Source: an uncultured Planctomycetota bacterium (GTDB lineage Bacteria > Planctomycetota > Brocadiia > CAIUPP01). From it: a DNA stretch of 22,635 bases. The stretch spans positions 1 to 22,635 of the forward strand of contig CAIUPP010000147.1 of NCBI GenBank assembly GCA_903901045.1. The letters are read 5' to 3'. This document shows positions 1 to 22,635 of this stretch, piece after piece. Made by a program: the position numbers and the translations under genes. The notes under the pieces were generated by a model. That model did not search any database and was not told the DNA's origin. It saw only the letters and a program-made list of their open reading frames with translations. The stretch's first letter is position 1. The number at the start of each line of letters is the position of its first letter.

Positions 1-101
1 GCGCCGCCGAGATGGCCCTCCACGAAGGGGCCACAGAACTCGCCGACCGCATACGACAGGGAATCGGCGAGGCGCTGGGGATGGGGGGCGTCAAGGAGTG
101 A
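1..101 (+). CDS. 3' end of an unidentified protein-coding gene (partial, frame 3; C-terminal peptide ...AAEMALHEGATELADRIRQGIGEALGMGGVKE, stop TGA 99-101)
   Basis: Open frame running in from the window edge to TGA at 99-101 with protein-like composition. No family recognised. Confidence 0.3.
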   Translation, partial: AAEMALHEGATELADRIRQGIGEALGMGGVKE

Positions 102-192
102 AGAAACGGCACGATTGAATGGGGACGGGAATCGACGGCGAGTACCGAATACTGAGTGCTGAATATGCCCTGTAGAAAACAGGCGAACGCTC

Positions 193-485
193 CTTTGCGG
201 CAGCCGCAATAGCAGGGGCTCGGCATTGAATCCGTAGTCATCGCGAGCCATTCGACGTTGCTCATGGCCCTGAGTGTATCGAAGGGCGAGCGCCGCGAAG
301 AACTATGTTGGCTCGCTGCGGATCGTCGGCGCGAACGCGGCGATCTTCCTGTTTCCCAACCCACCCGATGCCCGGGGTTTCTGTCCGCACCGAGGGGGCT
401 GGAAACCGGAAGATTGCCGCAGTCGGCGCGATTGCCGGACTGACCGCGCAACCCCCTGCGGCGCGCCTCCTTCGCAATGACGACC
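193..485 (+). mobile_element. gamma-family TIR-bounded repeat, copy R1 (MITE-like, about 290 bp)
   Basis: About 75% identical by eye to 7621-7868, 21873-22035 and the reverse complement of 2872-2958. Termini GTCATCGCGAG (left) and CTTCGCAATGAC (right) form imperfect terminal inverted repeats. An internal stem GCGGCGATCTTCC / GGAAGATTGCCGC is conserved. Imperfect direct repeats ACCGAATACTGAGTG at 143-165 and 537-560 lie outside the element. Confidence 0.6.
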
Positions 486-788
486 TATTTGTTGCTGCCG
501 CGCAGGTTATCGCCCCTGGCATGAGTTCTACAAAGCACACCGAATACTGAGTGACGAATGAACGCTAAGGCGCGCCATAATGAGCGACGCCATTTTGGGC
601 CGCCCCTTCAGGGCTCGGGGAAAGGGGGGGCCGTTTTCCCAGGGCGCTGCCCTGGGCTGGTATGGGTCGCGCTTTCAGCGCTTGATTGCTCGAGTAGCTG
701 CGGTTTGTTGCTCCATCGCGCGCTGCATCTCTGCAAGATCTCCATAAACCTTGACTTCACCCATGAGCGGCCCTACCTTTAAGGTGAC

Positions 789-2957
789 TTGCTCAGCTGC
801 CCGCATGGCACGACGTCATCGAGTCCTGGAGGGAGGATTCCCCTGAACGAACTTCGGGAGCTATGGCGTAAGGGACGACTGCGCCAATGGGCTCTAGTCC
901 TTGGTTTGGCCGCCCTGCCTGCACTATGCATGGGTCTCGCCGCAAGCCTCCGGGAGTTCTCTGCGGGCATGGTTGTTAGCGCTCTGCTGCTGTGGGCCCT
1001 TGCGGTCGCGTCGGGGGTCCATCACTTCGCGTGTGAATACAGCGGCAAAGTTGTTGGACCTGGCGGCGTTGATGCGTACAGTTGGTGGCAGGACTTTGGC
1101 GTCAAGGCCGCGGCGATTCTCGGACCGGTCAGCCTCAGTACGGCAGCGATGGCTTGCGCGGTTCACCTGACTTCCATCCAGTCACCCTTGTTTGCAGAAC
1201 ACCGGTGGATAAGGGGAATCAGCGCAGTTGCATGGGGCGACATCGGACTGTTCCTGTTCGGAGTCGCGTTGGTCCCGGCGGTCGCCTCATCCATGGTTCA
1301 AGCGTTCGCGTTTCGCAAACCGGCGAGTATCCTTTTGCCAATTGGCTCGTCGGCTCTTGCTGTACTTGTGGCTTGGTGGGTCGAAGATGTTAGCTGGCCG
1401 CCAGATGCGGTATGGGCGGTTCTGGCCGTTGGGGCAGTCATGGTCCTGGCTTATACATTCCTCGTTGGCTGCGTCTGGCGCAATCGGCAGGCTGCGGCAT
1501 CACGGTGGCGGCGATTTCGACGCTGGTCGGCAAGCATAGCGGCGGTTCTCCTCCTCGTCGCCCTGCCGCTTGGCAAGTACGTGTTTGTCACGTTCTTTGC
1601 ATCGCCCTCTTTTTTCATAACGAAGGGGATGGCAGTGCCGTGTGTGCCCCTCTTCGGGGACGCAGGCACTAGCGGGGGCAGTAGGATATCAGGCATTGCT
1701 TTTGATCAGGCGTGGCGCGGATGGCCACGCGGATTCTTCTATGATGTGAAGTCCGGGCGGGGAATATGGGTCAGCAGAATCCTCGCGAGCGCTCCGGATC
1801 GCAGTGGCTGGTCGCCATCGGGAAAGCGCTGCGTCATAGACAGAATAAGGATGTTGCTGTGTCCGTTATCACCGGCGGCTTCTTTGTCAGGAATAGAAGA
1901 TGGTGGGTGGGCGGATCCCAAGGTATTTCTTGACGTGTCTGAGCCGGACACGGGGCTCAGCATTGACTTGACCGGTCTTTGTCCGGACTTCTATCACAGT
2001 ATCTTCTATTCCACCGGCAGCACTGATTCAATAATCTGGGTTGATGACCATACCATCCTGCTCTGCGATGACAGCGCGGTTTCCTTTGTCAATATTGAAA
2101 CTGGGGAATTACACCGCTGCGTTGCCGGAAGTGATTGGCAGCCTTCATCGGACGTTCGGTGGACCGGCCAAAGTGCCATCGCAGGCGTCGCGTTTGCTGA
2201 AGGCCAAGTGCCGGGTGGGATGATCTGGCTGAGTTACAGGTGGGACAAAGCCAAAGCCGAAGCCTGGCACGTTACTGACGGCCCCCCAGGCCAATCGAAT
2301 GTTCGCGGCGTTTCGCCCGATGGACGATGGGCTGTCATGGGCGGGGGAAACATCAACGGCTCCGGAGCTTGGGACGATGACGTCTTCCTTGTGTCCTTGG
2401 TTGATGGCAGACCGCCGATTTTGCTTCGGACCGTGAAGCCAAACATGAAGTTGGCCTTTGGCAGGGAATGCTGGTTTGTCTGTTTTCTGCCCGACAACCA
2501 GCATGTTGTATTGAGTAGTCAGAATGATATCTTGATAGCGAACATCGATGATTTATCGTGCAGAACAATAAACGTCATTCCAGAACCGGACAAAAGAAAA
2601 GCCCGATTCAGCTACTTGACCTCCTCCCCCAATAAGCGATTCCTTTTCCTGGTAGCATGCCCCTCTGTCGGTTGGAAGAGCCTGTGGCGCGGGGTGCTTG
2701 ACTTGGAAACCGGCCAGCGATGGACATTCCCTTCCCAGGAGGTCTGGGATTCGGGAGTAGAATGGGTCGATGACGAAATGTTGGTTGGCGCTCAGGTTGG
2801 GACGCCGTGGATGATAATCAATCGTGACGGTACGGGCCAAAGGCCGCTCGGGCAACCGGACAGCGGGGAAAGGGTGAGGAACAAGGAAGATCGCCCCGCT
2901 CGCGCCGGGAACCGTTTGCCCGCAAATGCCACCTTCGCCGGCGGTCGCTCGCGATGA
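789..2957 (+). CDS. polytopic membrane protein with a C-terminal PD40/TolB-like beta-propeller repeat region (hypothetical, 722 aa)
   Basis: Long ORF. The N-terminal roughly 300 aa contain multiple hydrophobic helices. The C-terminal half has repeated SPDGRW / SPSGKR / SPNKRF beta-propeller-type motifs. GC is lower than in the neighbouring housekeeping genes. The start (TTG at 789) is uncertain, with in-frame ATGs at 930 and 969. The last ~28 codons and the stop lie inside gamma repeat copy R4. Confidence 0.55.
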   Translation: MLSCPHGTTSSSPGGRIPLNELRELWRKGRLRQWALVLGLAALPALCMGLAASLREFSAGMVVSALLLWALAVASGVHHFACEYSGKVVGPGGVDAYSWWQDFGVKAAAILGPVSLSTAAMACAVHLTSIQSPLFAEHRWIRGISAVAWGDIGLFLFGVALVPAVASSMVQAFAFRKPASILLPIGSSALAVLVAWWVEDVSWPPDAVWAVLAVGAVMVLAYTFLVGCVWRNRQAAASRWRRFRRWSASIAAVLLLVALPLGKYVFVTFFASPSFFITKGMAVPCVPLFGDAGTSGGSRISGIAFDQAWRGWPRGFFYDVKSGRGIWVSRILASAPDRSGWSPSGKRCVIDRIRMLLCPLSPAASLSGIEDGGWADPKVFLDVSEPDTGLSIDLTGLCPDFYHSIFYSTGSTDSIIWVDDHTILLCDDSAVSFVNIETGELHRCVAGSDWQPSSDVRWTGQSAIAGVAFAEGQVPGGMIWLSYRWDKAKAEAWHVTDGPPGQSNVRGVSPDGRWAVMGGGNINGSGAWDDDVFLVSLVDGRPPILLRTVKPNMKLAFGRECWFVCFLPDNQHVVLSSQNDILIANIDDLSCRTINVIPEPDKRKARFSYLTSSPNKRFLFLVACPSVGWKSLWRGVLDLETGQRWTFPSQEVWDSGVEWVDDEMLVGAQVGTPWMIINRDGTGQRPLGQPDSGERVRNKEDRPARAGNRLPANATFAGGRSR

Positions 2958-2958
2958 C
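2872..2958 (-). repeat. gamma-family repeat, partial copy R4 (left terminus plus central stem, with an internal deletion)
   Basis: The reverse complement reads GTCATCGCGAG ... GGCGCGAGCGGGGCGATCTTCCTTGTTCCTCACCC, matching the R1 terminus and central stem. The TGA in the CGCGATGAC terminus is the stop codon of the 722-aa ORF. Confidence 0.5.
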
Positions 2959-2960
2959 TG

Positions 2961-3058
2961 GAAGCTGTTTCAAAACTCGGCAGGTGGCGCGGACTAACGA
3001 GTCCGCGCTATGTTTCTCGCGGGTTTGATAACCCACGCCACAGTTTTGAAACAGCTTC
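2961..3058. repeat. nested palindrome: outer arms GAAGCTGTTTCAAAACTC / CAGTTTTGAAACAGCTTC around an inner perfect hairpin GCGCGGACT-AACG-AGTCCGCGC
   Basis: Inverted repeats read directly. The outer arms match 17 of 18 positions and are about 60 bp apart. The inner 9-bp stem at 2987-3008 is perfect. Confidence 0.6.
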
Positions 3059-3148
3059 TAATTGTTCGCGTTTGCGCCTGCACCCCGCCGTCGCCGTCTC
3101 CGTTCACTCGCCGCTCACTACTCAGTATTCTGCGCTCGCTACTCGCCG

Positions 3149-4282
3149 TTACTTCCTCTGCTCTCCCCCCTTGTACATCCTCGGAATGCGCCCGGTGAGC
3201 GAGGTGACGACGACGTGGGGGATGGTGTCCAGCAGGGTAGCGACTTCCTCGACAGTGATGCGTTCCTTCCCCTGCGCGCCGAGAAGCACCGCCTCGTCGT
3301 TCGCGCAGACGCCGGGAATATCGGTCACGTCCAGCATCGTCATATCCATGCAGACGCGCCCGACGATGGGCGCGCGCCGGCCGCGCACGAGCGCGTGCCC
3401 CTTGTTGGAATTGCCGCGATTCCAGCCGTCGGCGTAGCCGATGGGAAGCACGGCGATCTGCGACGCGCGCCGCGCCGTCCAGGTGCGCCCGTAGCTGACC
3501 GTCGCCCCCTCCGGCACCTCGCGCACCTGCGCCAGGCGGGTCTTGAGCGTCATCGCCTCGCGCAGTTCCACCGGGCGCGCCGTCTCGGGGGAGGGGTAGC
3601 TGCCGTACATGGCGATCCCCGGGCGCACCGCGTCGAACCGCGCCTCGGGGTATTGCAGCAGCCCGCCGGAGTTGCAGGCGTGCCAGAGCGGGATGCGGAA
3701 GTTGATGGCGTGGGTTGTCTGATGCAGGCTGGTGAAGAGGCGGATCTGCTCGCGCGTGAACTCCGCCCCGGCGCGTTCGTCTGCGCTGGCGAAGTGCGTC
3801 ATCACCCCGGCGACGCTCAGCCCCGGCAATTCGGCGATCCGGCGCACCACCTTCATCGCCTGCTCGACGGGGAAGCCGACGCGCCCCATGCCGGTGTCGA
3901 ATTTCAGGTGAATGTCCACCGTCCGGCGGCGCTTGCGCGCGACCTCGTCCAGCCTCGCCGCGAAGTCCAGGTCTCCCACGACGACCTCGAAGCCGAAGTC
4001 GCAGATCGCCTCGACTTCGACGAGCCCTTGCGCGCCGAGGATGAGGATGCTGCCGGGGAGCTGGGCGTCGTAGAGCATCGCCCCTTCCTCGACCGTCGCC
4101 ACGGCGAAGCGCTTCACCCCGCCGGCGGAGAGCGTCCAGCTCACCGGTATCGCGCCGTGGCCGTAGCCGTCCGCCTTGACGATGCCGATCATCTCCACCT
4201 TCTCACCCGCCAGCTTGCGCAGCTCGCGCAAGTTGTGGGCGATGGCGGAAAGGTCGATCTCGGCGATCGTGGGACGAGGCAT
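3149..4282 (-). CDS. alr: alanine racemase
   Basis: The translation (MPRPTIAEIDL...GIVKADGYGHGA...) has the PLP-lysine motif VKADGYGHG and matches Alr in length (377 aa) and architecture. The start is taken at the internal ATG (reverse-complement CAT 4280-4282) rather than the ORF-track start, because the upstream 37 codons translate the hairpin repeat. Confidence 0.88.
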   Translation of the reverse strand: MPRPTIAEIDLSAIAHNLRELRKLAGEKVEMIGIVKADGYGHGAIPVSWTLSAGGVKRFAVATVEEGAMLYDAQLPGSILILGAQGLVEVEAICDFGFEVVVGDLDFAARLDEVARKRRRTVDIHLKFDTGMGRVGFPVEQAMKVVRRIAELPGLSVAGVMTHFASADERAGAEFTREQIRLFTSLHQTTHAINFRIPLWHACNSGGLLQYPEARFDAVRPGIAMYGSYPSPETARPVELREAMTLKTRLAQVREVPEGATVSYGRTWTARRASQIAVLPIGYADGWNRGNSNKGHALVRGRRAPIVGRVCMDMTMLDVTDIPGVCANDEAVLLGAQGKERITVEEVATLLDTIPHVVVTSLTGRIPRMYKGGEQRK

Positions 4283-4307
4283 TGTGCCGTTCCGATAAGA
4301 AAACATA

Positions 4308-4452
4308 CGACGATTTCTGATTTCTGAGTTCTGATTACTGATTTCAGATTGGACGGCAACTACGAAGCACATCCGGCACGATACGCCGCGCACTACCTTA
4401 TTATGGGAGGCTGTTGAATCAGAAATCAGAACTCAGAAATCAGAAATCGTTC
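4308..4452. repeat. long palindromic element H1 with arms built from about 8-bp tandem repeats (TTTCTGAT/TTTCTGAG)
   Basis: Left arm CGATTTCTGATTTCTGAGTTCTGATT (4311-4336) is the perfect reverse complement of 4424-4449. The arms extend imperfectly to about 37 bp around a ~65 bp core. It lies between the hisB stop and the alr start and is followed on the minus strand by a U-rich tract (GUUUUCUU). Confidence 0.7.
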
Positions 4453-4468
4453 GTCCCCCCGCCCGTCG

Positions 4469-5074
4469 TTACAGAACGCCCTTTGTCGACGGAACTCCCT
4501 TGACGCGCGGGTCCAGTTGCGTCGCGGCGTCGAGCGCTTTGGCCAGCGCTTTGAAAATCGCCTCGGCAATGTGGTGGCTGTTGCGGCCGTAGGGGACGTT
4601 GACGTGCAGGTTCATCCCGGCGTTCGCCGCCAGCGCGCGGAGGAACTCCTCCACCAGTTGGACGTCGAAATCGCCGGTCTTCTCGCTTGGGAATTTGACG
4701 CGGTACACCAGCATCCCTCGGCCGCTGAGGTCGAGGACGACCTCGGCGAGAGAGTCCTCCATCGGCACGGACATCTGGCCGAAGCGGCGGATCCCCGCGC
4801 GCTCCCCCAGCGCCTCCTTGAACGCCTGCCCGAGGCAGATGGCGACATCCTCCACGGTGTGGTGCGCGTCCACCTGGGTGTCGCCGGTCGCCTTGATGCG
4901 CAGGTCGAACAGCCCGTGGCGGGCCAGCAGGTCGAGCATGTGGTCGAGGAAGCCGACGCCGGTGGATATCTCGCTGCGCCCCTCGCCGTCCACGGTCAGG
5001 GAGAGGGTGATCTCCGTCTCGCGCGTCTTGCGGCGGACCTCCGCCTTTCTTGCTGCCATCTCATGCTCCTCCAA
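4469..5074 (-). CDS. hisB: imidazoleglycerol-phosphate dehydratase
   Basis: About 200 aa with the IGPD metal-binding histidine/glutamate motifs (DHHTVED, HHIAEA) and the characteristic duplicated half-domains. The ATG five codons further in (5059) is an alternative start. Confidence 0.9.
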   Translation of the reverse strand: MEEHEMAARKAEVRRKTRETEITLSLTVDGEGRSEISTGVGFLDHMLDLLARHGLFDLRIKATGDTQVDAHHTVEDVAICLGQAFKEALGERAGIRRFGQMSVPMEDSLAEVVLDLSGRGMLVYRVKFPSEKTGDFDVQLVEEFLRALAANAGMNLHVNVPYGRNSHHIAEAIFKALAKALDAATQLDPRVKGVPSTKGVL

Positions 5075-5134
5075 GGGGCGTATGCATAAACGTTACAGCA
5101 TTATACGCACACGAGGGCGGAAGTAAAATGGGTG

Positions 5135-5308
5135 GAACGGATTCAACGTTCAACATTCGACGTCCGACGTTCAACGTCCAATGAACAGTGACAACGAGGG
5201 TGCGGCGGTGATGACTGTATCCATATCAATTATCATGCCGCGCCCTCTGCGGTGCCGTTGTTTGAACGTTGGACGTCGGACGTCGAATGTTGAACGTTGA
5301 GTCCGTTT
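5135..5308. repeat. long palindromic element H2 with arms built from CAACGTTC/GACGTCC-type short repeats
   Basis: The ~45-bp arms at 5135-5180 and 5260-5308 are near-perfect reverse complements. They flank a ~75-bp core that holds its own GAGGGTGCGGC/GCCGCGCCCTC stem. The right arm overlaps the TAA stop (5307-5309) of the lipoprotein gene. Confidence 0.7.
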
Positions 5309-6071
5309 ACTGCTTCCAGGGATCATACGGCTTCACATCATCCCCCACGAGGTCCCAGCCGAAGATGCCGGTGATGAAATCGAAGATTTGGAGTGGGTAG
5401 ACTTTCGCGCGCGCGCCGACGAAGAGGTGAACCTCGGCCCCCACGCCGAAGCTGTTGCCCGTGACATGAAAGCGGTGCGCCTCCGTGTCGCGCTCCAGGA
5501 AGGTCATGCGGACGCGCGTGAGCGTCTGCGGGATGCCGCGCGTCACCGGGTCCGGCCAGATCGCCTTCTCCGATTCGTAGCTGATCCCGCCCATCGTCAG
5601 AATCGTTCCGCTCTTGTCTCCATTCTCCTGCCCGAGCATCGTGGGGAAGAAGATCAGGCTGGCCGGGAAGGGGAGCGAGCAGATGGTGGTCGTGTTTTCG
5701 TCCAGAATAGCGCTGCGCTGCCCGAGGCGCCAGCGCTGCGCCTCCGTCGCGCCGAACCCGTAGAAGCCGATCAGGTAGTCCACCTCCACCTTGGCCCACT
5801 TGCCGCCGGAGAGGCTCACGTCGAACATGTCCCAGAAATCCAGCGACCGGTTCCTGAAATAGCCGCCGATTTTGCGGCGCAGCGAGAGCGGCCCTTCCTT
5901 GTCCCACTCGGCCCAGGAATCCTCCTTGGGCGCGTTCATGGCCGTCTCGGAGTTCGCGGCGGCGGACACGGTTGCGTCGGAGGAATCGCGATGGCCGCTG
6001 GGCGAGGCGCATCCGGCCAGCCCCAACGCGCCAAACAGCAGGACTGCGGCGGCAAGCGTTGTCTTCATCAT
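5307..6071 (-). CDS. hypothetical lipoprotein (signal peptide MMKTTLAAAVLLFGALGLAGC with lipobox)
   Basis: Signal peptide with an LAGC lipobox. A possible SD (AAGAGG) precedes the internal tandem ATGs, so the start is taken at 6071 rather than 6089. No family recognised. Confidence 0.6.
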   Translation of the reverse strand: MMKTTLAAAVLLFGALGLAGCASPSGHRDSSDATVSAAANSETAMNAPKEDSWAEWDKEGPLSLRRKIGGYFRNRSLDFWDMFDVSLSGGKWAKVEVDYLIGFYGFGATEAQRWRLGQRSAILDENTTTICSLPFPASLIFFPTMLGQENGDKSGTILTMGGISYESEKAIWPDPVTRGIPQTLTRVRMTFLERDTEAHRFHVTGNSFGVGAEVHLFVGARAKVYPLQIFDFITGIFGWDLVGDDVKPYDPWKQ

Positions 6072-6081
6072 TGGCCTCTTG

Positions 6082-6152
6082 TGTGGCACAGCCGCCCTCG
6101 GCTGCGCTGATGCAAGGGAGAGACTCTCACAGCCGAGGGCGGCTGTGCCACA
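6082..6152. promoter_or_regulatory. perfect 23-bp inverted repeat (TGTGGCACAGCCGCCCTCGGCTG / CAGCCGAGGGCGGCTGTGCCACA) with a 25-nt spacer in a divergent intergenic region
   Basis: Read directly. It lies between the lipoprotein gene start (minus strand, 6071) and the RAM-domain gene start (plus strand, 6244). On the minus-strand transcript the stem ends 1 nt before the putative SD. Confidence 0.6.
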
Positions 6153-6243
6153 TTCATCCCCCGCCGTCCAAACCCGGGCGGAAGTATGGTATCATGTCCT
6201 TGCGAGATCGGCCAGAGAAAACCCGCTACTAGGAGACCCTGAC

Positions 6244-6522
6244 ATGGTGACCGCATTCGTCCTGATCAACTGCCGGCGCGACGCGATCCAGGAGACCGCC
6301 GAAGCCCTCAACCGCCTGCCGGGCGTTGCCGAGGTTTACTCCGTCGCGGGCCAGTTCGACCTGGTCGCCGTGGTCCGCGCCAAGTCCAACGATGAGTTGG
6401 CCGAACTGGTCACCGGCCATCTCGTGCGGCTCAAGGGGATCGAGCACACGCAGACGCTCATCAGCTTCAAGGCCTATTCGCGGTTCGACCTGGAGCGGAT
6501 GTTCGGCATCGGGATGGAGTGA
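6244..6522 (+). CDS. stand-alone Lrp/AsnC-type ligand-binding (RAM) domain protein, no HTH (92 aa)
   Basis: MVTAFVLINCRRDAIQETAEALNRLPGVAEVYSVAGQFDLVAVVRAKSNDELAELV...GIEHTQTL matches the AsnC-family C-terminal domain pattern. The SD AGGAGA lies 7 nt upstream of ATG 6244. The longer ORF-track frame beginning at 5872 was rejected. Confidence 0.7.
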   Translation: MVTAFVLINCRRDAIQETAEALNRLPGVAEVYSVAGQFDLVAVVRAKSNDELAELVTGHLVRLKGIEHTQTLISFKAYSRFDLERMFGIGME

Positions 6523-6544
6523 ACGGCTCAGGCCACGGCGGATG

Positions 6545-6627
6545 TTGACTACGAAACACATCGTGCGCGGTATCAGGTGCGCACTGCGCACCGAACCGCG
6601 CACTCTTGCGAAAGGCGCGAAAGCGAA
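6545..6627 (+). mobile_element. alpha-family left terminus (TTGACTACGAAACACA...CGAAAGGCGCGAAAG) interrupted by a nested beta hairpin (ATCGTGCGCGG...CCGCGCAC)
   Basis: The two flanks together reconstitute the alpha TIR seen at 12051, 13076 and 13547. The inserted ~45 bp is a GC-rich double hairpin homologous to 9877-9928. The element ends 4 nt before the GH114 ATG. Confidence 0.6.
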
Positions 6628-6631
6628 GAAT

Positions 6632-7585
6632 ATGAAGCTGCGTCTTGCGCTGCTACCGCTGATCGTTTGCGCCGCACTCGCCTCGCCCGCACCGGCCGAC
6701 GTGGACTACCGCGCCGAGATGAAGTCCTTTGTGGCCGCCATCGCCGCGCATGCGCGCACGGGCAATCCCGACTTCGGCGTGTTCCCCCAGAACGCGTCCG
6801 ATCTGGGGGAGGATGCCGCCTATGTGGATGTCTGCACCGGCATCGGGCAGGAGGATATCCACTACGGCTACACGGGCGACGCCAAGCCCACCCCGCCGGA
6901 GGATGTGGCGCAACTGGAAACGAACCTCGACCGTTTCACCGCGCGCGGAAAGCTGGTGCTCACCCTCGACTACCCCTTCAAGCAAAAGAACAAGCCGCCG
7001 AAGTTCGACCGCAAGACCCTCCAGCGCGTCGATGCCGCCTATGCCGCTTCGCACGCCAGGGGGTACGTTGCGACCGTCGCGGTGCGGGAGTTGAACGTCC
7101 TCACCTTCGCCCCCGGCCACCTGCCTTCGCCCAACGAAAGCCCGATGGAGTGGTCGGACGTTGCGGAGTGGGCGGTGCAACTCCAGCCTGCGCGCAAGCA
7201 ATCGCGCGCGGATTACCTCGGCGCGCTCGGCGCGTCGGGATACGACCTGGTGCTGCTGGACTACTCCTTCGACGGCGGCGCGGATGCGGAGTACACCCCG
7301 GAGGAGATCGCCGCGCTCAAGACGCAGTTGAACGGCAAAGTGGTCGCCTACCTCTCCATCGGCGAGGCGGAGGATTACCGCTGGTACTGGCAACCCACCT
7401 GGAAACCCGGCGCCCCCGCCTGGCTCGGCCGCGAGAACCCGGATTGGAAGGGGAACTACAAGGTCCATTACTGGGACCCGGCCTGGCAGGCGATCGTCAT
7501 GCAGTATCTGGACAAGATCATCGCGCAGGGGTTCGACGGGGTCTACCTGGACCTTGTGGATGCGTATGAGTACTACGAAGAGTAG
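6632..7585 (+). CDS. secreted glycoside hydrolase family 114 (TM1410/PelA-hydrolase-like, endo-alpha-1,4-polygalactosaminidase family) protein
   Basis: Signal peptide MKLRLALLPLIVCAALASPAPA. Conserved GH114-type motifs are present (YLSIGEAEDYRWYW, HYWDPAWQ, GFDGVYLDLVDAY). The start is taken at ATG 6632, downstream of the ORF-track start. Confidence 0.75.
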   Translation: MKLRLALLPLIVCAALASPAPADVDYRAEMKSFVAAIAAHARTGNPDFGVFPQNASDLGEDAAYVDVCTGIGQEDIHYGYTGDAKPTPPEDVAQLETNLDRFTARGKLVLTLDYPFKQKNKPPKFDRKTLQRVDAAYAASHARGYVATVAVRELNVLTFAPGHLPSPNESPMEWSDVAEWAVQLQPARKQSRADYLGALGASGYDLVLLDYSFDGGADAEYTPEEIAALKTQLNGKVVAYLSIGEAEDYRWYWQPTWKPGAPAWLGRENPDWKGNYKVHYWDPAWQAIVMQYLDKIIAQGFDGVYLDLVDAYEYYEE

Positions 7586-7620
7586 GCAGTGAGAACAGTT
7601 CGTGGAGAAGAAGCGGGCGC

Positions 7621-7868
7621 TTCTTTGCGGCAGCCCGATGACTGGGGCGCGGCATTGAATCGGCCGTCATCGCGAGAGAGCGCCGCGGAGAACCGTGTTG
7701 GCGCACAGCGGGCCGGTGGCGCGAACGTGGCGATCTTCATGTTGATCAACTCGCGCGCAGACAGGGCTGTCTGTCCGCGCCGAGGGGGGGGCGGAAGATT
7801 GCCGCAGTCGGCGCGACTGCCGGAGAGACCGCTCGACCTTCCGTGGCGCGCCTCCTTCGCAATGACCA
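7621..7868 (+). mobile_element. gamma-family TIR-bounded repeat, copy R2
   Basis: It shares the 5' block TTTGCGGCAGCC..GGCATTGAATC..GTCATCGCGAG, the central stem GGCGATCTTC / GGAAGATTGCCGC and the 3' terminus GCGCGCCTCCTTCGCAATGAC with R1. There is a ~40-bp internal deletion relative to R1. Confidence 0.6.
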
Positions 7869-7952
7869 TCCACCGCCCTCGCCTGTGGGTTTTGAAAAAG
7901 CCTCGCTCCGTTCAAACCATCGTGACAGCGTGTCGTTCTTTCCGCGGTCGAG

Positions 7953-7997
7953 GTGGGGACACAAAACTTTCCTTTGGAAAGTATTGTGTCCCCACCG
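7953..7997. terminator. strong hairpin (21-bp stem GGTGGGGACACAAAACTTTCC / GGAAAGTATTGTGTCCCCACC, 3-nt loop) downstream of the GH114 gene and R2
   Basis: The inverted repeat has one mismatch. No T-run follows, so it may be a repeat element or an RNA-stability hairpin rather than an intrinsic terminator. Confidence 0.4.
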
Positions 7998-8176
7998 GCC
8001 CCTAGAACGCCCACCCCCTCCGCGCTCGCCGAAAACCCTTGACGTTGCGGCAGTGTCGTGTCTATACTCTCGGGCAATGCGGCAAACAAAGGGCAAGGGT
8101 GTGCTTCTTGGCCACCGGAATTGAATGGAGGCTGAGGCGCAACGGCCTGGGAGATTTCAGGAGGGAGGGGCGGCGT

Positions 8177-8974
8177 ATGAAGATACATATCGTCTTACTT
8201 TGGGTCCTTGGCGTATGCTGCGCCGCCAGCGCGCAGCCGGCGGCTTCCGTCAATCCCGCCGGATATAGCTATGAAGTCTCAAAGGTTCGTACGGCATCCG
8301 ATGTGTGCCTTCACCTCGGGTCGAACCAGAATAAGAGCACGTACTCCGTCGAGTTCAGCGGGGACTTCAAGGTCGTCAAGGATGCGGACGTGGTCGCAGT
8401 CGAGCAGAGCTTCGTGCCGCTGGAGGCGCCGGGCGCCAAGGGAAACAACCTCTACAACATGAACTCCCGCAAGTCGGGGGCCCCGCGGTACACGGCGGTC
8501 CATACGCGAGTCGCGCAGATGGGCCTCCCGCGCACCGAGCTTCTGGCCAATGCCTTCCTGATCGACAAGATGCGCGTTCAGGCCGAGGTGGTCATAGCGA
8601 AGAAACGCGAGGAGAAGGTCTTCGCGGTGCGCGGGATGGAGGACTTTGAAAGGGTGGCCGACGGGCTCTCCATCCGCATTCGGAACATCAATATGAGCGA
8701 CAAGCGGGAGCTCACGGTGGTAGTGAAATACACCCGCACCGAGGCCGGCACGCGAATGCCGTTTCTCGAGGCGGTCTATGCGCTGGATACGCAGGGGAAG
8801 GAGATCGGCGGCGACCGCTGGGCAAGCGGGGATCCGTTTGCCACCACGGGTGAGTTGACGTACAAGTTCTATCTCAGCGGAGATCAAACGCACAAGAGCT
8901 TGCGGCTCGTTGCCGTGACCGATAATGCGGCCGAAACGGTGGCGTTCGATATCAGCGGCGCTTTCCAGAAATGA
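8177..8974 (+). CDS. hypothetical secreted protein (265 aa)
   Basis: Signal peptide MKIHIVLLWVLGVCCAASAQP. The SD GGGAGGGG lies 6 nt upstream of ATG 8177. No family recognised. The upstream extension of the ORF track was rejected. Confidence 0.6.
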   Translation: MKIHIVLLWVLGVCCAASAQPAASVNPAGYSYEVSKVRTASDVCLHLGSNQNKSTYSVEFSGDFKVVKDADVVAVEQSFVPLEAPGAKGNNLYNMNSRKSGAPRYTAVHTRVAQMGLPRTELLANAFLIDKMRVQAEVVIAKKREEKVFAVRGMEDFERVADGLSIRIRNINMSDKRELTVVVKYTRTEAGTRMPFLEAVYALDTQGKEIGGDRWASGDPFATTGELTYKFYLSGDQTHKSLRLVAVTDNAAETVAFDISGAFQK

Positions 8975-9019
8975 GCGCGCACTGGGAGCGCCGGAGGAAG
9001 CAAAGGGAGGGGAACGGAC

Positions 9020-9202
9020 ATGGAAGAGCACGAACCTGCGAAATGTGCATGCGGCCGGTTGCCCAGGGTGATTGAGAAGCGCGGATGCCACTACGTCAAG
9101 TGCAAGTGCGGCAAGTGCACGACGTTCTGGATTTCGCCGGCCCTCGCTTTGCGCGCGTGGGAGAACGGCCAGCACGGGCCGACCAACTACGATATGCGCT
9201 GA
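9020..9202 (+). CDS. Lar-family-like zinc-ribbon protein (restriction-alleviation-type small Cys-rich protein, 60 aa)
   Basis: The pattern C-x-C-G ... G-x-Y-x-x-C-x-C-G-x-C-T ... ALALRAWENGQ resembles Lar-family proteins (CxxCG, GxY, CxxCG, and AL..W-N at the C-terminus). A strong SD AAGGGAGGGG lies 7 nt upstream. Confidence 0.5.
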   Translation: MEEHEPAKCACGRLPRVIEKRGCHYVKCKCGKCTTFWISPALALRAWENGQHGPTNYDMR

Positions 9203-9372
9203 GCGCCGGCTGTGAAGGTGAAGTTCAGCCCGATGCGTTGCGCGGCTGTCCGGCCGCTGAGGGCAAAGCAATGCCTTGCCCTTCTGCTTCCTGGTTCTCG
9301 GGAGCAAGGCGACTCCTTAGTCTCGAACCTGCGCCTTATCGCGCGGATCGCAACCAATGGAAGGAAGGTGCC

Positions 9373-9867
9373 GTGCGCCGCTGGCGTCATTTGATTCTGG
9401 TGCTGCTCGCCGCGCTTATCGCCTGCGCCGTCACCTTCTTCAAGAAGTTGCCGACGGTGGACGGGACGGTGGTGGTGGTCCATGACGGCGACACCCTCAC
9501 CGTGGCGCACAATGGGGGGAAGGAGAAGGTCCGCCTGCAGGGGGTGGACTGTCCCGAGCTGGCGCAGCAGTACGGCAGGCAGGCGAAACAGTTCACGACC
9601 CGCCTCTGCCTCGGCAAGGCGGTCACCGTCAAAGTCGTCACCAAGGACCAGTATGGCCGTTCGGTGGGATACGTCACGCTGCCGGACGGCAAGAGCCTGA
9701 ACCAGGAACTGGTGCGCAACGGAATGGCCTGGTGGTACGAGCAATACGCCCGGGGCGACAGGACTCTGGAGGGGCTCCAGGAGGAGGCGCGCAAGGAGCG
9801 GCGTGGCCTGTGGGCGGAGAAGGACCCCGTCGCGCCGTGGACGTATCGGCGCAATAACGGGTACTAA
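9373..9867 (+). CDS. membrane-anchored thermonuclease (staphylococcal-nuclease-like SNase domain)
   Basis: SNase motifs DGDTLTV, VRLQGVDCPE, ...GRSVGYV, LNQELVRNGMAWWY...GLW follow an N-terminal hydrophobic helix. The start is taken at GTG 9373, preceded by GGAAGGAAGG. ATG 9271 is an alternative. Confidence 0.7.
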   Translation: MRRWRHLILVLLAALIACAVTFFKKLPTVDGTVVVVHDGDTLTVAHNGGKEKVRLQGVDCPELAQQYGRQAKQFTTRLCLGKAVTVKVVTKDQYGRSVGYVTLPDGKSLNQELVRNGMAWWYEQYARGDRTLEGLQEEARKERRGLWAEKDPVAPWTYRRNNGY

Positions 9868-9953
9868 CCCCAAAACAGATCGTGCGCGGCGTCGGGCGCA
9901 TATCACGCACCGGGCCGCGCACGATGTGCTTCATTCTGGCGAAGGTCCGCAAC
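9864..9953 (+). mobile_element. second copy of the alpha-variant terminus with a nested beta hairpin (12-bp perfect stem ATCGTGCGCGGC / GCCGCGCACGAT)
   Basis: It aligns with 6545-6627 (CTAACCCCAAAACAGATCGTGCGCGG ... CTGGCGAAGGTCCGCAACG against CTAACTACGAAACACATCGTGCGCGG ... CTTGCGAAAGGCGCGAAAG). Its first bases supply the TAA stop of the thermonuclease gene. It lies between convergent genes. Confidence 0.55.
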
Positions 9954-9969
9954 GTCCGCTTCGCCGCTG

Positions 9970-11946
9970 TCAGACCTTGGGGACGTCCCCGGGGAGCACT
10001 TCCGTCTTCTTCCCCAGGTTCTTCGTCAGCGTGGCCGCCAGCGCCTGAAACGCGCCGAGGTCGCCGCCGGCGACGAGGATATCCGGGACGATCTTGATCT
10101 TCTCTTTGGCCAGTTCCTTGGCGATGTTGACCAGGGCGGTGGGCATCTGGCCCAGCGCGTTCACCTGCGCGGTGTACGCCTCGGCGTTGGCCATACCGAT
10201 GGCGCGGGTCTTCGAGGCCTCGGCGTCGCCGGTCTGCTTGATGAAGGAAGCTTCGCCGTCGGCCTGCGCCTTGCGCGCGTTCGCGTTGTTCTGCTCGATG
10301 TTGATCGTCACCTCGGACTTGGCCAGCGAGGACTGCATGTCCGCCATTCCCTTGGCCTTCTCCGTCTGGATGCGCTGCTCCTGCGCTTCGCGCTGCTTCT
10401 GGTACGTCTGAATCTCCTGGTTCGCGATTTCGCGGTCGGTCAGCACGTGGACGATCTGCTCGGGCAGAATCACATCCTGGATGTACACTCCCTTGGTCTC
10501 GACGGCGTACTCGTCCAGTTTCCCCTTGATGTGGGCGAACGCCTCCTCCTGCACCATCTGGCGCGTCTCGATGAACTTCACCGCCGGCAGCGCCTGGAGG
10601 CGGTCGCGGAAATGGTTTCCGACGGCGGCCTGGAGCACCTCGGTCACCAGGTTCATCATCGTGCCGACCATGGAGATCACGCGCGGGGCCTTCACGTCGG
10701 GCACGTGGATCTGCACCTGCAGGTCGATCTTGAAGACGAACCCCTCGCGGCTTTTCGCCGTGATCTGCTCGAGGCGCGAGTCCAGATGATGCGCCTGCGA
10801 TTCCGCCTCCGCCCAGTTGAGCGTGAGGATGCAGGTGGGGACGATCTCCCACTGGTAGCAGTGCGGGTTAATGGGGTACTTGCCGGTGCGCAGCGGTTCC
10901 TGCCAGATGCCGCGATGCCCCGGCTTCACCAGCGCGCCGAAGCGGAACTCCTCCTCGGAAATGTCCTCCGTCGGCAATCCCACGTATGCCTTCACCACGG
11001 CCACCTCGCCCTGCTCCACGACCAGCATGAACACCTTCTCGACCTTGATCAGGAAGGGGTTCAAGTTGTAGGCGCCGTAGAGAAGCGGGTCGTGCTGCAA
11101 GCCGATCTTGCCCCCCTTGTCCAGGAACAACTGGAAGTCCTGGTAGTTGTTGTGAAGATGGTTCTTGGTGCCGAGGCAGGCTTCGATCAGGTGGTTCTCG
11201 GAATTCCCCTCCTTTTCGAGCGCCTCGACGTCGGCGAAGCCGCCGAGCCGGCTGGCGATGTCGCCCGCCGTGAGCGGCTGCCCTTCGAAGACCGTCACGA
11301 TGCCGATGGTATCGCGCATCTTGCCGCTGTTGTCCGGCAGCGCCTCGATCCGCACCACCTCCAACTGCTCCGGGTTCAACCCGAAGGATTTGCAGGTCAG
11401 CCGTCCGCTCTCGGCCATGCGCTGGATGTCCGGCGAGATCGGGACGCCGTAAACGTTCGCCTTGGTGATCACCAGGAAGCCGACGGGGTGGATCGGCGCC
11501 AGCGTGCCCGGCGCGAGCACGGGGCGCTGCACGCCCTTCTGCCCGCCGTTTTCGATGAACGCCTTGATGTCCGTGAAGCTGCCGAAGGAGGGCTTGTAGA
11601 AGGCGGATTTCGAGCCGATCGGCGGGGGCGCGCCGATCTGCGAGATCACCACGCCGATCTCACCCGCCGGCACCTGCACCCAGGGATACTTCACGACCTT
11701 ATAGACCACCCAGAACTTCCAGCGCCAGCCGGGCATCAGCAGGTCGGCCTGATAGCCGGCCTCGCCGTGGAAGCCGATCGGGCAGTCCCCCGTCAGCTTC
11801 GACCAGGAGAAGCGCTTCATCACCAGCCCGACTTCCGTCGGCCCGATGACGCGGATCGAAGGGAGTATCACGAAGAACAAAAGGAAGAAAGCGGCGGCGA
11901 ACGACCACCCGACAAACGTCACATGAAGTGTGAATTGCGCCGGCAT
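9970..11946 (-). CDS. SPFH/band-7 flotillin-family membrane protein (659 aa) with a long C-terminal coiled-coil/Ala-rich repeat region
   Basis: An N-terminal TM helix is followed by SPFH-like IRVIGPTEVGLVMKRF...PGWRWKFWVVYKV and a flotillin-type C-terminal EA-rich helical region. The SD GGAGGGG lies 5 nt upstream of the internal ATG (reverse-complement CAT 11944-11946), chosen over ORF-track start 12036. Confidence 0.75.
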   Translation of the reverse strand: MPAQFTLHVTFVGWSFAAAFFLLFFVILPSIRVIGPTEVGLVMKRFSWSKLTGDCPIGFHGEAGYQADLLMPGWRWKFWVVYKVVKYPWVQVPAGEIGVVISQIGAPPPIGSKSAFYKPSFGSFTDIKAFIENGGQKGVQRPVLAPGTLAPIHPVGFLVITKANVYGVPISPDIQRMAESGRLTCKSFGLNPEQLEVVRIEALPDNSGKMRDTIGIVTVFEGQPLTAGDIASRLGGFADVEALEKEGNSENHLIEACLGTKNHLHNNYQDFQLFLDKGGKIGLQHDPLLYGAYNLNPFLIKVEKVFMLVVEQGEVAVVKAYVGLPTEDISEEEFRFGALVKPGHRGIWQEPLRTGKYPINPHCYQWEIVPTCILTLNWAEAESQAHHLDSRLEQITAKSREGFVFKIDLQVQIHVPDVKAPRVISMVGTMMNLVTEVLQAAVGNHFRDRLQALPAVKFIETRQMVQEEAFAHIKGKLDEYAVETKGVYIQDVILPEQIVHVLTDREIANQEIQTYQKQREAQEQRIQTEKAKGMADMQSSLAKSEVTINIEQNNANARKAQADGEASFIKQTGDAEASKTRAIGMANAEAYTAQVNALGQMPTALVNIAKELAKEKIKIVPDILVAGGDLGAFQALAATLTKNLGKKTEVLPGDVPKV

Positions 11947-12048
11947 AATGCCCCTCCATTTCTGGCCAAGGTTTTGCGGATAGAACCCCACACACCCACG
12001 CTGAGGGCATTGTACATTTCCGGCGCAAAACTGCAAGGCGGCGAAGGG

Positions 12049-12147
12049 TGTTAACTACGAAATACGCGAAAGGCGCGAAAACGGGGAGAAGGTAAGAGAG
12101 GCGGGGAGGTTTCTGAGCCAATCCTTTTCGCCTCTTTCGTAGTTGAC
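12049..12147 (+). mobile_element. alpha-family ORF-less miniature element (about 100 bp) bounded by inverted termini GTTAACTACGAAA / TTTCGTAGTTGAC
   Basis: The 5' end GTTAACTACGAAATACGCGAAAGGCGCGAAAACGG is near-identical to the termini at 13076 and 13547. The 3' end is the inverted terminus. The ATG/GTG position of the full element reads ACG here. Confidence 0.7.
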
Positions 12148-12172
12148 TCTGCTCTAGAGCAGTGCCTATACT
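12143..12172 (+). promoter_or_regulatory. near-consensus sigma70-type promoter TTGACT-N18-TATACT whose -35 hexamer lies in the right terminus of the alpha mini-element; perfect 14-bp palindrome CTGCTCTAGAGCAG in the spacer
   Basis: TTGACT at 12143-12148 and TATACT at 12167-12172, read directly. This is about 48 nt upstream of GTG 12221, which has a good SD (GAGGGAGG). Confidence 0.45.
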
Positions 12173-12220
12173 TCGCGACGGTGTGGCAATGCAAGGGACA
12201 GGAGCCGAGGGAGGCTGGAA

Positions 12221-13078
12221 GTGACCGACGAAGGCATCAATTCAAATGCGCAAGATAGCGACCACCCGGCAAGCTGCCTGCTGACTCGCAGATTCCAGAA
12301 GCTTGCGGTATGGGTTGGCGTCTTGGTGGGAATCGTCGCCTTTTTTCTCTGCGTGCTACAGAGGGGGTCTCCCTCGGGCATCAGCACAATCTGGGCCGGA
12401 AGCTCCTGGGAATTGGATATCGTCACAGGGTTGCTCAGCCTCTTGCTTGCCGGCCTTGTGGGATGGCTCTTCTGGGGGATGGCGCTCGCCATTGGTGGGA
12501 TGGCATGTGATTATCGGAATGGGACGCGCCTTCAAAAGGCATTCATACTGGCTGCCATATTCGCCGGGCTCGCCTGTTTTGTGGCGTCCATGTGCCCGGT
12601 ACAACGTGGATGGCCTGTCAATGCCGGAATCGGTCTCCTCATGGGTGCGCTGGTTTGCGTGTTTGTTCTAGCCCTGGGACAGGCGGTCGATTGGGTTCTT
12701 GAAGGCTTCCGACTAGGCATGGGCTTTCGGCGACTAACAATTCCGGCGGCTATTTTCGGGGCTCTTCTGATTCTTGGCTGCATCTTTGGCGTGGAGCATA
12801 CGGGTGGCCTTGCGTTCGCAATTGCGGTTGTTTGGTGGTTGTGTGGCATCCGGCGTGACATGGCAGGGCGACTGCTGGCAAGCCGCGTCGGCTGGTTTGC
12901 GGGAATCACGGCGTGGCTGATAGTCCTGCAGGTGGTTCTGCACGGTGAAGCCCGCGCTTCCCGCGAAGCTGGATATCCCTGGATTATACTTGTCCCCATT
13001 GGCACGGGGATTATTGCGTGGATCATCACGCTGATTATCGGACAAGTCCGTGGGCGCAAGAACAGCAGCAAGCTCTAA
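12221..13078 (+). CDS. hypothetical polytopic membrane protein (285 aa), lower GC than the flanking genes
   Basis: Multiple hydrophobic helices. GTG start with SD GAGGGAGG 6 nt upstream. The stop TAA (13076-13078) is formed by the first bases of the alpha element terminus. No family recognised. Confidence 0.55.
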   Translation: MTDEGINSNAQDSDHPASCLLTRRFQKLAVWVGVLVGIVAFFLCVLQRGSPSGISTIWAGSSWELDIVTGLLSLLLAGLVGWLFWGMALAIGGMACDYRNGTRLQKAFILAAIFAGLACFVASMCPVQRGWPVNAGIGLLMGALVCVFVLALGQAVDWVLEGFRLGMGFRRLTIPAAIFGALLILGCIFGVEHTGGLAFAIAVVWWLCGIRRDMAGRLLASRVGWFAGITAWLIVLQVVLHGEARASREAGYPWIILVPIGTGIIAWIITLIIGQVRGRKNSSKL

Positions 13079-13515
13079 CTACGAAACACGCGAAAGGCGC
13101 GAAAGTGGAAGAGAGGATTATTTTTAAGGACGAGAGCTACAAAATCATCGGGGCATGCTTCGAGGTGTACAAGGAGAAGGGGAACGGCTTTTTGGAGGCG
13201 GTGTACCAGGAATGCCTGGGCATCGAGTTCGCGGCACAAGGCATCCCCTTTGCCGAAAAGCCGCGACTGCGATTGGCTTACAAGGGACAGGAACTCAGGC
13301 AGGAATATGAACCCGATTTCCTATGCTTTGACAAGATCGTCGTTGAGATCAAGGCGGTGAAGTTGCTGGCCGATGAACACCGCGCGCAGGTCATCAACTA
13401 CTTGAAGGCGACTGGGAAGCAACTGGGGCTGCTGGTTAACTTCGGCCACTATCCAAAGATCGAAATGGAGCGCTTTGTAAACCAGCCTCTTCCGCGCGCA
13501 TCGCATGCTCTATAG
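13076..13515 (+). mobile_element. alpha-family element carrying a GxxExxY gene (left terminus TAACTACGAAACACGCGAAAGGCGCGAAA immediately followed by the ORF); the right terminus is replaced by the adjacent derivative copy
   Basis: The left terminus matches the other copies. The gene's start codon lies directly after GCGCGAAA (GTG here, ATG in the derivative at 13547, ACG in the mini copy at 12049). Confidence 0.6.
13105..13515 (+). CDS. GxxExxY-family protein (PD-(D/E)xK nuclease-like fold, 136 aa)
   Basis: ESYKIIGACFEVYKEKGNGFLEAVYQECL contains the GxxExxY signature (GFLEAVY). The length and the remaining conserved pattern (LRLAYKG...EPDF...VVEIKAVK...QVINYLKATG...LLVNFG) fit the family. The GTG start is as described for the carrying element. 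Confidence 0.7.
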   Translation: MEERIIFKDESYKIIGACFEVYKEKGNGFLEAVYQECLGIEFAAQGIPFAEKPRLRLAYKGQELRQEYEPDFLCFDKIVVEIKAVKLLADEHRAQVINYLKATGKQLGLLVNFGHYPKIEMERFVNQPLPRASHAL

Positions 13516-13546
13516 GTGGGTGCGCCCACTAAGGCAACGCCGGATT

Positions 13547-13700
13547 TTAACTACGAAACACGCGAAAGGCGCGAAAATGGAGGAGTGGGGAAGTTTCAAG
13601 AAGGATATTGGGGACGTGTCAGGGCGGCATGCGAAGATTGAGTGGGAACGTTTTGAACACCAATCTCTTTCGCGTATTTCGCGTGTTTCGTAGTTAACAC
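13547..13700 (+). mobile_element. alpha-family internally deleted derivative (about 155 bp) with both terminal inverted repeats and remnants of the GxxExxY N- and C-termini
   Basis: The 5' end TTAACTACGAAACACGCGAAAGGCGCGAAAATGGAGGAG and the 3' end CTTTCGCGTATTTCGCGTGTTTCGTAGTTAA (its reverse complement) are about 25-bp TIRs. The internal translation MEEWGSFKKD...KIEWERFEHQ parallels VEERIIFKDE...KIEMERFVNQ of the intact gene. The element ends 8 nt from the stop of the acetyltransferase gene. Confidence 0.7.
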
Positions 13701-13707
13701 CCGTTGT

Positions 13708-22035: not shown

Positions 22036-22130
22036 CCCTCTGCGCGGGGGTGTGGAACTCCGGGGAGGCACGAGTTATCCTAAGGCGGCCTGACAACGCG
22101 CTCGGGGCCAGAACACGGGAGGGCATTCCG

Positions 22131-22634: not shown

Positions 22635-22635
22635 C

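Follow-up and report, generated by a model that had tools for sequence, protein, structure and literature searches.

We describe a family of palindromic repeats, here called gamma, that occurs in a stretch of 22,635 nucleotides (the window; contig CAIUPP010000147.1, G+C content 62%) from an uncultured Planctomycetota bacterium. Gamma is probably a high-copy, non-coding, intergenic repeat of the type represented by repetitive extragenic palindromes (REPs), bacterial interspersed mosaic elements (BIMEs) and REP doublets forming hairpins (REPINs), and consists of two REP-like units joined head to head. Each arm of the palindrome is an autonomous stem-loop unit: covariation among the copies shows that the arms fold individually, as single strands. 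Gamma thus belongs to a known kind of element, of which it is an unusually large representative, and does not call for a new category of genetic element.

The window contains two full copies, R1 and R2, and two half copies, R3 and R4, both of the latter reversed (Table 1); copies from other loci carry L numbers (L001, L080 and so on). An earlier note on this DNA had reported a repeat in four copies bounded by terminal inverted repeats (TIRs); the repeat is real, although two of the four are only halves. Its exact termini, GTCATCGCGAG / (C)TTCGCAATGAC, are found at six sites, namely 237, 471(-), 2948(-), 7666, 7856(-) and 21889, and with at most one mismatch there are 8 matches versus 2.6 expected, a number attained by 0 of 100 shuffles. 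For the stem half GGCGATCTTCC and its partner the count in the window is 6, versus 1.0 expected, so that both the shared termini and the internal stem proposed earlier are borne out. R1 and R2 are 79-88% identical across about 260 nt. A family profile hidden Markov model (HMM) recovers both R4, which comprises the left unit only (E 6.6e-12, model positions 1-90), and R3, which comprises the right unit only (E 7.4e-18, model positions 85-207). The palindrome spans 200-370 bp: the dimer measures 200-290 nt, and about 370 nt with the outer stem. We considered whether R3 and R4 are the halves of one split element and rejected this, because the sides turned towards the 19 kb between them are their termini and not their loops.

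Table 1. Gamma copies, their helices and associated features in the window
Feature	Position	Strand	Details
21-nt heptad-type repeat, left copy	144-164	+	abuts extended R1; separate family, not gamma
R1, long form	165-538	+	outer stem ~167-236 pairing with 482-537 encloses core dimer; MAFFT alignment of 20 copies
R1 core, head-to-head dimer	237-481	+	nhmmer 172 bits, model positions 1-207; helices from alignment
R1 left unit	tag GTC 237-239; foot 240-244/340-344; P2 290-295/327-332	+	
39-nt nested hairpin module CCATTCGACGTTGCTCATGGCCCTGAGTGTATCGAAGGG in R1	248-286	+	inserted directly after GTCATCGCGAG
R1 inter-arm stem P3	333-349/408-424	+	
R1 right unit	foot 413-417/474-478; P4 425-430/462-467; tag GAC 479-481	+	
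21-nt heptad-type repeat, right copy	539-559	+	abuts extended R1; 90% identical to 144-164 (19/21)
722-aa open reading frame	789-2957	+	called as 662 aa from 969; rare membrane and beta-propeller-like protein
R4	2869-2958	-	lone left-hand unit; foot ATCGC/GCGAT and P2 CGCCGG/CCGGCG intact; opposite strand codes for the final ~30 codons and TGA of the 722-aa frame
R2	7602-7866	+	left outer flank 7602-7665 and core dimer 7666-7866; nhmmer 172 bits
R2 feet and P2	feet 7669-7673/7730-7734 and 7798-7802/7859-7863; P2 7680-7685/7717-7722		
R2 P3 and P4	P3 7723-7739/7793-7809; P4 7810-7815/7847-7852		
39-nt module, solo	19879-19917	-	intergenic; 85% complementary to 21899-21937
R3	21889-22048	-	lone right-hand unit; 39-nt module at 21900-21938

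Structure was assessed by counting pairs on an alignment of 22 copies, with 500 shuffles per comparison. RNAalifold, applied to 18 and then to 22 copies, yielded a four-way junction of P1 (the two termini paired), P2 (a local hairpin in the left arm), P3 (the central stem) and P4 (a local hairpin in the right arm). With P2 and P4 local in this way, 97.8% of the cells are paired and 10 pairs have changed on both sides (24 cells); the corresponding values for two independent arms, each with its foot helix and P2 or P4, are 99.4% and 12 pairs, and neither result is matched by any of the 500 shuffles. A plain long hairpin, in which the left arm pairs with the right arm throughout, was rejected as the selected structure: 80.2% of the cells and 50% of its outer helix pair, no pair has changed on both sides, and its score is at or below chance in the shuffles.

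Compensatory changes affect five of the six pairs in each of P2 and P4, as in the replacement of GCGCCG/CGGCGC by GCCGACCG/CGGTCGGC, GGGCGGAA/TTCCGCCC or GGCCGG/CCGGCC. P1 and P3 display zero covariation and are conserved in sequence, each with one conserved non-Watson-Crick position (C.A in P1, G.U in P3), and both of these positions turn into perfect pairs once each arm folds on itself: ATCGC (within GTCATCGCGAG) with GCGAT (within GTGGCGATC) on the left, and ATTGC with GCAAT on the right. The resulting foot helices are paired in 100% and 98.2% of cases in the two arms of the 22 copies, and four copies show a switch of the diagnostic pair between C-G and U-A. Counted per arm and on both strands, 24 units read ATCGC..GCGAT, 15 read ATTGC..GCAAT and one reads ACTGC..GCAGT, versus 3 that are mismatched. 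Because the right arm of L071 has C-G at this pair but is in all other respects a usual right arm, the switch of the foot pair is not explained by a flip of orientation. The earlier suggestion that a secondary structure is under selection therefore stands, on the covariation of P2, P4 and the feet, but not on the base then cited in R3. In that copy, which has no left partner, the 13-mer GCGGCAATCTTCC is the right stem half GGAAGATTGCCGC in reverse complement; R1 and R2 carry this half as well, so the supposed compensatory change is an orientation artefact. Nor does the central stem, where covariation was to be sought, ever covary.

A unit thus consists of a GTC tag, a 5-bp foot beginning with ATYGC, the sequence GAR, a variable apical hairpin (P2 or P4), the foot partner GCRAT and a CTY tail. 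Two inverted units with the tags outside make up the core, joined via the inner stem GGCGATCTTCC / GGAAGATTGCC and a spacer of 55-60 nt; the units can also pair with each other, their tails pairing mutually within P3. Single units occur alone as well, R3 and R4 being such singletons with intact feet, and the dimer is often nested in an outer palindrome and sometimes invaded by the 39-nt hairpin module. What had been read as differing internal deletions is mostly this module, present in R1 and R3. It is symmetrically placed in one or the other arm, or in both, of R1, L080 (where both arms have it), L068, L071, L081 and L058b, is missing from 12 other copies, and is found by itself both in the window and upstream of it (L001 6757-6796).

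Copies elsewhere were retrieved from metagenomes with a right-arm 23-mer common to R1-R3. The metagenome collection yielded 56 loci, of which about 25 are true members of the family, 65-82% identical to R1 and R2; it includes a diverged subfamily (L039, L044, L054 and L059), several single units, half copies and tandem partial copies. Searches beyond this collection were negative: a scan of 185,579 genomes (one per species) with the 23-mer produced 32 matches, all of them single and due to chance, in unrelated GC-rich genomes and without extended similarity; a scan of viral contigs with the same conserved core gave 0 matches; blastn of R2 and one diverged copy against plasmids gave none; and a literature search under the gamma sequence strings, or the peptide strings that the repeat would encode, turned up nothing relevant. 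Gamma is likewise missing from the 12-20 kb around hisB in relatives with 78-80% HisB identity, in which synteny differs beyond alr, and the family is therefore lineage-restricted. The nearest named relatives by HisB (window hisB 4469-5059) are Planctomycetota and Candidatus Brocadiia metagenome-assembled genomes at 66-68% identity, and closer ones (76-94%) exist in metagenomes only.

All 17 copies that could be placed are intergenic, typically 40-130 nt past a stop codon, with at most one between divergent genes. No reading frame is conserved: stops and indels that are not multiples of three appear in every frame across the copies, and a search with the translated R2 frame against 5.8 billion proteins, aimed at spurious open reading frames (ORFs) in other copies, found no match. 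Together with the intergenic placement, the interrupted frames indicate that gamma is non-coding.

The same data could be taken to suggest a family of structured RNAs, either small RNA genes or cis-acting elements in 3' untranslated regions that stabilise, process or terminate the upstream transcript, with a copy number reflecting use at many operons. We consider this unlikely, even though the compensatory changes in P2, P4 and the feet and the location downstream of genes fit it, and other REPs are believed to work as RNA hairpins (PMC3733652). Between genes of the same direction 9-10 copies are co-oriented with them and 2-3 opposed, but the bias is not significant. The drawn strand has a slight advantage in folding, in 14 of 22 copies under RNA parameters and in 17 of 22 under DNA parameters, which is a weak preference; P1 favours the bottom strand (C.A on top, T.G below) and P3 the top strand (G.U), so that no single strand is consistently preferred and RNA and single-stranded DNA are not distinguished as the selected form. 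Rfam contains no family for gamma at gathering or permissive (E<=10) thresholds, the latter giving only generic miRNA-hairpin noise, and neither a sigma-70-like promoter nor an intrinsic terminator was detected in or beside R1. P1 and P3 are conserved by sequence and not by covariation, and a gene would not readily account for half copies, for partial copies in tandem or for a copy within an ORF. A REP-like origin would remain compatible with an RNA role.

The boundaries of gamma bear on a second alternative, a classical miniature inverted-repeat transposable element (MITE), that is, a deletion derivative of an insertion sequence (IS) with 11-12 bp TIRs, moved in trans by a DDE transposase and generating target-site duplications. 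The nearly invariant inverted termini GTCATYGCGAR in 22 copies, the size of 200-290 bp, the high copy number and the existence of truncated copies all agree with such an origin, and yet we find it very unlikely. No target-site duplication surrounds any of 18 copies, whose flanks tend instead to inverted complementarity, and homology runs 55-65 nt past the termini in many copies. In R1, L080, L073, L040, L058a and L057, outer flanks of 55-70 nt on each side are conserved and mutually complementary (MAFFT, 20 copies), and R1 folds from about 165 to 538 as one composite hairpin of about 370 nt (z -2.8). R2 retains the left outer flank alone, extending to about 7602, its right end being sharp at ...AATGAC with no right outer arm; some other copies keep only the right one. 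Moreover, each arm folds on itself with covariation, termini of this kind are common to hairpins of 60-100 nt in genomes of 36-68% GC, and no IS with gamma ends was seen in the loci examined. The TIRs of the earlier note are thus the tag and foot of two independently folding units, with similarity continuing outside them.

The imperfect direct repeats that had been noticed at some distance from R1 exist (19 of 21 positions identical), but they abut the extended R1 and constitute another repeat family. The sequence ACCGAATACTGAGT..GCTGAAT adjoins gamma in L053 (right flank, inverted) and L040 (left flank) and recurs in the window at 3119-3156(-); since it stands beside gamma elsewhere, once inverted, it represents a separate heptad-type family and not a target-site duplication. 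Members of this CTGA-rich family (ACCGAAT-ACTGAGT-GCTGAAT) lie near gamma copies on different contigs and in either orientation. In Planctomycetes and Acidobacteria, class 3 Y1 transposases are reported to lie between structures whose foot is CnGA, of which Solibacter has about 600 copies (PMC6006769), and the heptad-type family could be of the same kind.

Among known systems, the closest in layout are the CGTC-tagged REPs, for which we compare gamma with the family descriptions of Di Nocera, De Gregorio & Rocco 2013 (PMC3733652). As portrayed there, CGTC REPs have an unpaired CGTC tag (variants TGTC and CCTC), stems of 8-9 bp that start with A-T, loops of 4-5 nt and 3-nt tails (CCA). Head-to-head dimers, their tags pointing outwards, predominate; many are heterodimers, and the spacers, 20-100 bp long, may be structured. 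The dimers are sometimes nested in larger palindromes, and no transposase is associated with them. They follow ORFs that are unidirectional or convergent, and occasionally a copy occupies the end of an ORF. Novosphingobium aromaticivorans is among the hosts, and Neisseria dRS3 (= CGTC-1) and Rickettsia RPE-4 and RPE-6 are equated with CGTC families.

Gamma resembles these families (dRS3/NIME, RPE-4, RPE-6 and Novosphingobium CGTC-2) in its AT stem start and, more loosely, in its outer unpaired (N)GTC tag and 3-nt tail. The tag reads GTC at 21 of 22 left ends (TTC in L039) and GAC at all 22 right ends, outside the foot helix; the stem starts with A-U and U-A pairs in both arms of all 22 copies (feet ATYGC/GCRAT). 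The likeness extends to the head-to-head heterodimer, with tags outside in 22 of 22 full copies and, in 20 of 22, a different diagnostic foot pair in each arm, and to the structured spacer, the nesting in a larger palindrome and the absence of a known dedicated transposase. Gamma likewise lies downstream of coding sequences, between unidirectional or convergent ORFs, with an occasional copy at an ORF 3' end.

Several observations weigh against placing gamma among REP-type repeats. The first base of its tag is not conserved: all four bases occur, in the proportions A6, C5, T5 and G2 on the left and, as the complement, G10, C3, T3 and A2 on the right. The unit of 75-100 nt, with its 5-bp foot, asymmetric internal loop and 6-bp apical helix closing 25-35 nt, does not fit the stem and loop that define CGTC REPs, and gamma is about five times larger than a head-to-head dimer of that type. 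Copies were fetched by the right-arm 23-mer, so the conservation of that stretch is there by construction; the four copies with the alternative foot state may derive from one or two events alone; and the covariation of the structure is equally compatible with an RNA function. Neither an empty site nor an insertion polymorphism came to light: the window organism was recovered in several metagenomes, but all its contigs (ENA, JGI) are 99.99% identical over window positions 1-12957, and the fetched gamma loci share no genes with the window in which orthologous empty sites could be found. Finally, tblastn with RAYT (REP-associated tyrosine transposase) and IS200 queries revealed no transposase in about 1 Mb of loci. 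The tail following GCRAT also differs (CTT or CTC versus CCA), and the host lineage is uncultured and outside the five phyla that the paper names. As gamma largely fits the CGTC layout but differs in dimensions and in the variable first tag base, it is filed as an enlarged modular variant related to the CGTC superfamily rather than assigned to any of the four families described.

Comparison with other systems points the same way. REPINs and BIMEs, which are GTAG-type REP doublets mobilised by RAYT Y1 transposases (PMC6006769), share with gamma the two inverted imperfect palindromes within a larger hairpin, each foldable alone, as well as singletons as dimer remnants, hundreds of intergenic copies and a recognition presumed to take place at the level of single-strand DNA (Bertels & Rainey 2011; Ton-Hoang 2012; PMC6006769). 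Gamma, however, is 2-4 times longer and lacks a GT[AG]G tag (there is no GTAG or GTGG at the unit ends), and neither a RAYT gene nor a REPtron was seen in the same megabase of loci with these queries; for want of the tag and of a RAYT gene, gamma is not a REPIN in the strict sense. Rickettsia palindromic elements (RPEs) and intragenic REPs offer a parallel in that there, too, coding sequence contains a palindromic repeat whose translation adds residues and does not destroy the protein, but RPE-1 insertions are internal and in frame, whereas the gamma half-unit lies at the extreme 3' end and replaces a stop. Correia elements and other bacterial MITEs have a similar size range, inverted ends, hairpin-forming transcripts and a high intergenic copy number; theirs are 26-bp TIRs with a TA duplication, whereas the ends of gamma are autonomous stem-loop units and, lacking a target-site duplication, it fails as a MITE.

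Short relatives of gamma extend well beyond its own lineage. A scan of viral contigs (IMG/VR) for GTCATTGCGAG..GCAATCTC..GAGATTGC identified 39 contigs of 36-68% G+C carrying hairpin dimers of 60-100 nt and, in some cases, half units repeated in tandem. Several are true phages with portal, capsid and adaptor genes, and the recurrent neighbours of the short elements are just such ordinary phage structural genes; blastn of two short relatives against cultured phages gave no match. In two low-GC (38-39%) viral contigs, L123 (692-895) and L101 (8521-8760), short GTCATTGCGAG elements are repeated in tandem as 41-nt half units beside a complete hairpin dimer. A miniature version in L093 has the very termini and inner stem of gamma (GTCATCGCGAAG..GTGGCGATCT..GAGATTGCCAC..CTTCGCAATGAC). 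The diverged copy L059 reads GTCATTGCGAGCGA...AGCGAAGCAATCTCC, a motif that is also known from other phyla. Plasmids of Novosphingobium, Methylosinus and Halomonas carry the same short dimers, one Novosphingobium record at 40 or more places, and cyanobacterial plasmids contain partial matches. The dimer of N. aromaticivorans pNL2 (L133 1503-1587), between two dioxygenase-pathway genes, reads CGTC-ATTGC...GCAAT-CCA per arm and has the same ATTGC..GCAAT foot and GTCATTGCGAG end as gamma; the tag of the short relatives does read CGTC.

One might go further and unite all GTCATYGCGAR...GCRATCTY elements, from 60-nt hairpins to gamma with its 200-370 nt, in a single-strand superfamily spanning bacteria and phages and served by a new enzyme, with mutually exclusive folds (independent arms versus inter-arm P1 and P3) that would act as a two-fold switch in single-strand DNA transposition or RNA processing. 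We regard this as a decidedly doubtful proposition. If it were true, gamma would be the best-resolved example, its enlarged arms making the covariation visible.

In Neisseria, NIME mosaic elements are flanked by dRS3 repeats (CGTC-1 REPs), at which filamentous prophages integrate. By analogy, gamma units might be recombination or integration sites recognised by a site-specific enzyme, such as an IS110/Piv-type or a tyrosine recombinase. The mosaic, modular architecture, with conserved short inverted units bounding variable segments, would suit such a role, as would the retention of tag, foot and tail by sequence, not covariation, across very different genomes including phages, and the equation of dRS3 with CGTC-1 in PMC3733652. 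Nevertheless, we find this very unlikely: the gene tables list no recombinase or prophage adjoining any copy in the window or the other loci, and the 19 kb separating R4 from R3 hold ordinary housekeeping genes.

R4 is the copy that touches a gene. As the earlier note had pointed out, it provides the C-terminus and stop of the 722-aa ORF, whose stop codon is the TGA inside CGCGATGAC at 2955-2957; we put the repeat-derived part at about 31 residues, compared with about 28 in that note. A word-indexed protein search with this ORF returned a self match only, but an exhaustive HMMER search of 1.84 billion representatives identified six remote homologues with 25-29% identity. Five of the six stop three residues after an invariant Leu (L627 in the 662-aa form), as ...DGTxRRPLLRE-stop, and the sixth has an unrelated tail of 18 residues. 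The window protein runs 35 residues past this Leu, about 31 beyond the end of the homologues; the extension is coded from about nt 2859, which matches the start of the repeat homology at 2856-2869. A single gamma unit thus lies on the native stop of the gene, adding about 31 residues and a stop. The native C-terminus had been thought to be replaced; what was replaced is the stop codon, by a short extension, with no large native C-terminus lost. The gene was probably acquired horizontally; its codon usage is atypical, and its G+C content at third codon positions is 0.62, versus 0.8-0.9 in neighbouring genes. The family is very rare (7 proteins among the 1.84 billion representatives), and one homologue has a weak match to an ABC-2 membrane domain.

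Returning to gamma as a REP-type repeat, we propose that it spread as selfish DNA within one uncultured high-GC lineage, most likely through single-stranded DNA on which an enzyme specific for both structure and sequence would act in trans, reading the tag and foot. This proposal draws on the analogy with Y1/HUH RAYT transposases acting on REPs and with IS200/IS605 biology (PMC6006769, PMC3733652). By similar analogy, copies downstream of genes would be co-transcribed as 3' hairpins. One singleton landed on the stop codon of the rare membrane/beta-propeller gene and now supplies its last residues. Because no enzyme was found and no insertion polymorphism seen, dispersal as single-stranded DNA and co-transcription are put forward as hypotheses.

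Other repeats abound near gamma. The Rfam motif Acido-Lenti-1 matches window positions 638-682 (+), about 100 nt downstream of the long form of R1, with 40.4 bits versus a gathering threshold of 37, and a second, sub-threshold copy lies just upstream at 585-615 (+); as the motif is absent from 14 other gamma-bearing loci, the two are not linked. A hairpin repeat, GAAGCTGTTTCAAAACT...AGTTTTGAAACAGCTTC, at 2960-3060 adjoins R4 and is also present by gamma in an unrelated contig (L081, right flank), and a small hairpin repeat, GGGGACACAAAACTTTCC..GGAAAGTATTGTGTCCCC, at 7955-8000 downstream of R2 recurs at the left flank of gamma in the same contig. The hisB-alr spacer (4310-4343 / 4417-4450) harbours a near-perfect hairpin of TTTCTGA-type heptads; a relative with a 94% identical HisB (L137 3470-3560) has an orthologous hairpin of different heptads (GAATGAC), the type of structure being kept and the sequence replaced. 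Further heptad hairpins lie at 15600-15690 (CAATGGT) and 3119-3156. The spacer between hisB and the next gene is filled by an inverted repeat with 71-nt arms, 82% complementary (5136-5206 / 5237-5307). Its orthologue in L137 (2488-2841) is unalignable and has other hairpins, although the genes are 86-90% identical, so intergenic repeats turn over much faster than genes. A repeat family on TAACTACGAAACACGCGAAAGGCGCGAAA, direct and inverted, occurs at 6527-6603, 12033-12109, 13076-13133, 13529-13605, 13667-13713(-) and 22537-22635; the window ends in a hairpin with 38-nt arms of similar composition.

REP-type repeats are known mainly from Proteobacteria, and those of the CGTC type are without a known mobilising enzyme; gamma comes from an uncultured high-GC lineage. 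Its covariation identifies each unit, and not the dimer alone, as the folded entity, which gives a handle on the target of the enzyme or RNA-binding factor involved, the tag and the 5-bp foot. Where metagenomes of this lineage are assembled, the family explains many contig breaks and spurious small ORFs, and R4 is a clean example of a repeat unit recruited as the C-terminus of a protein.

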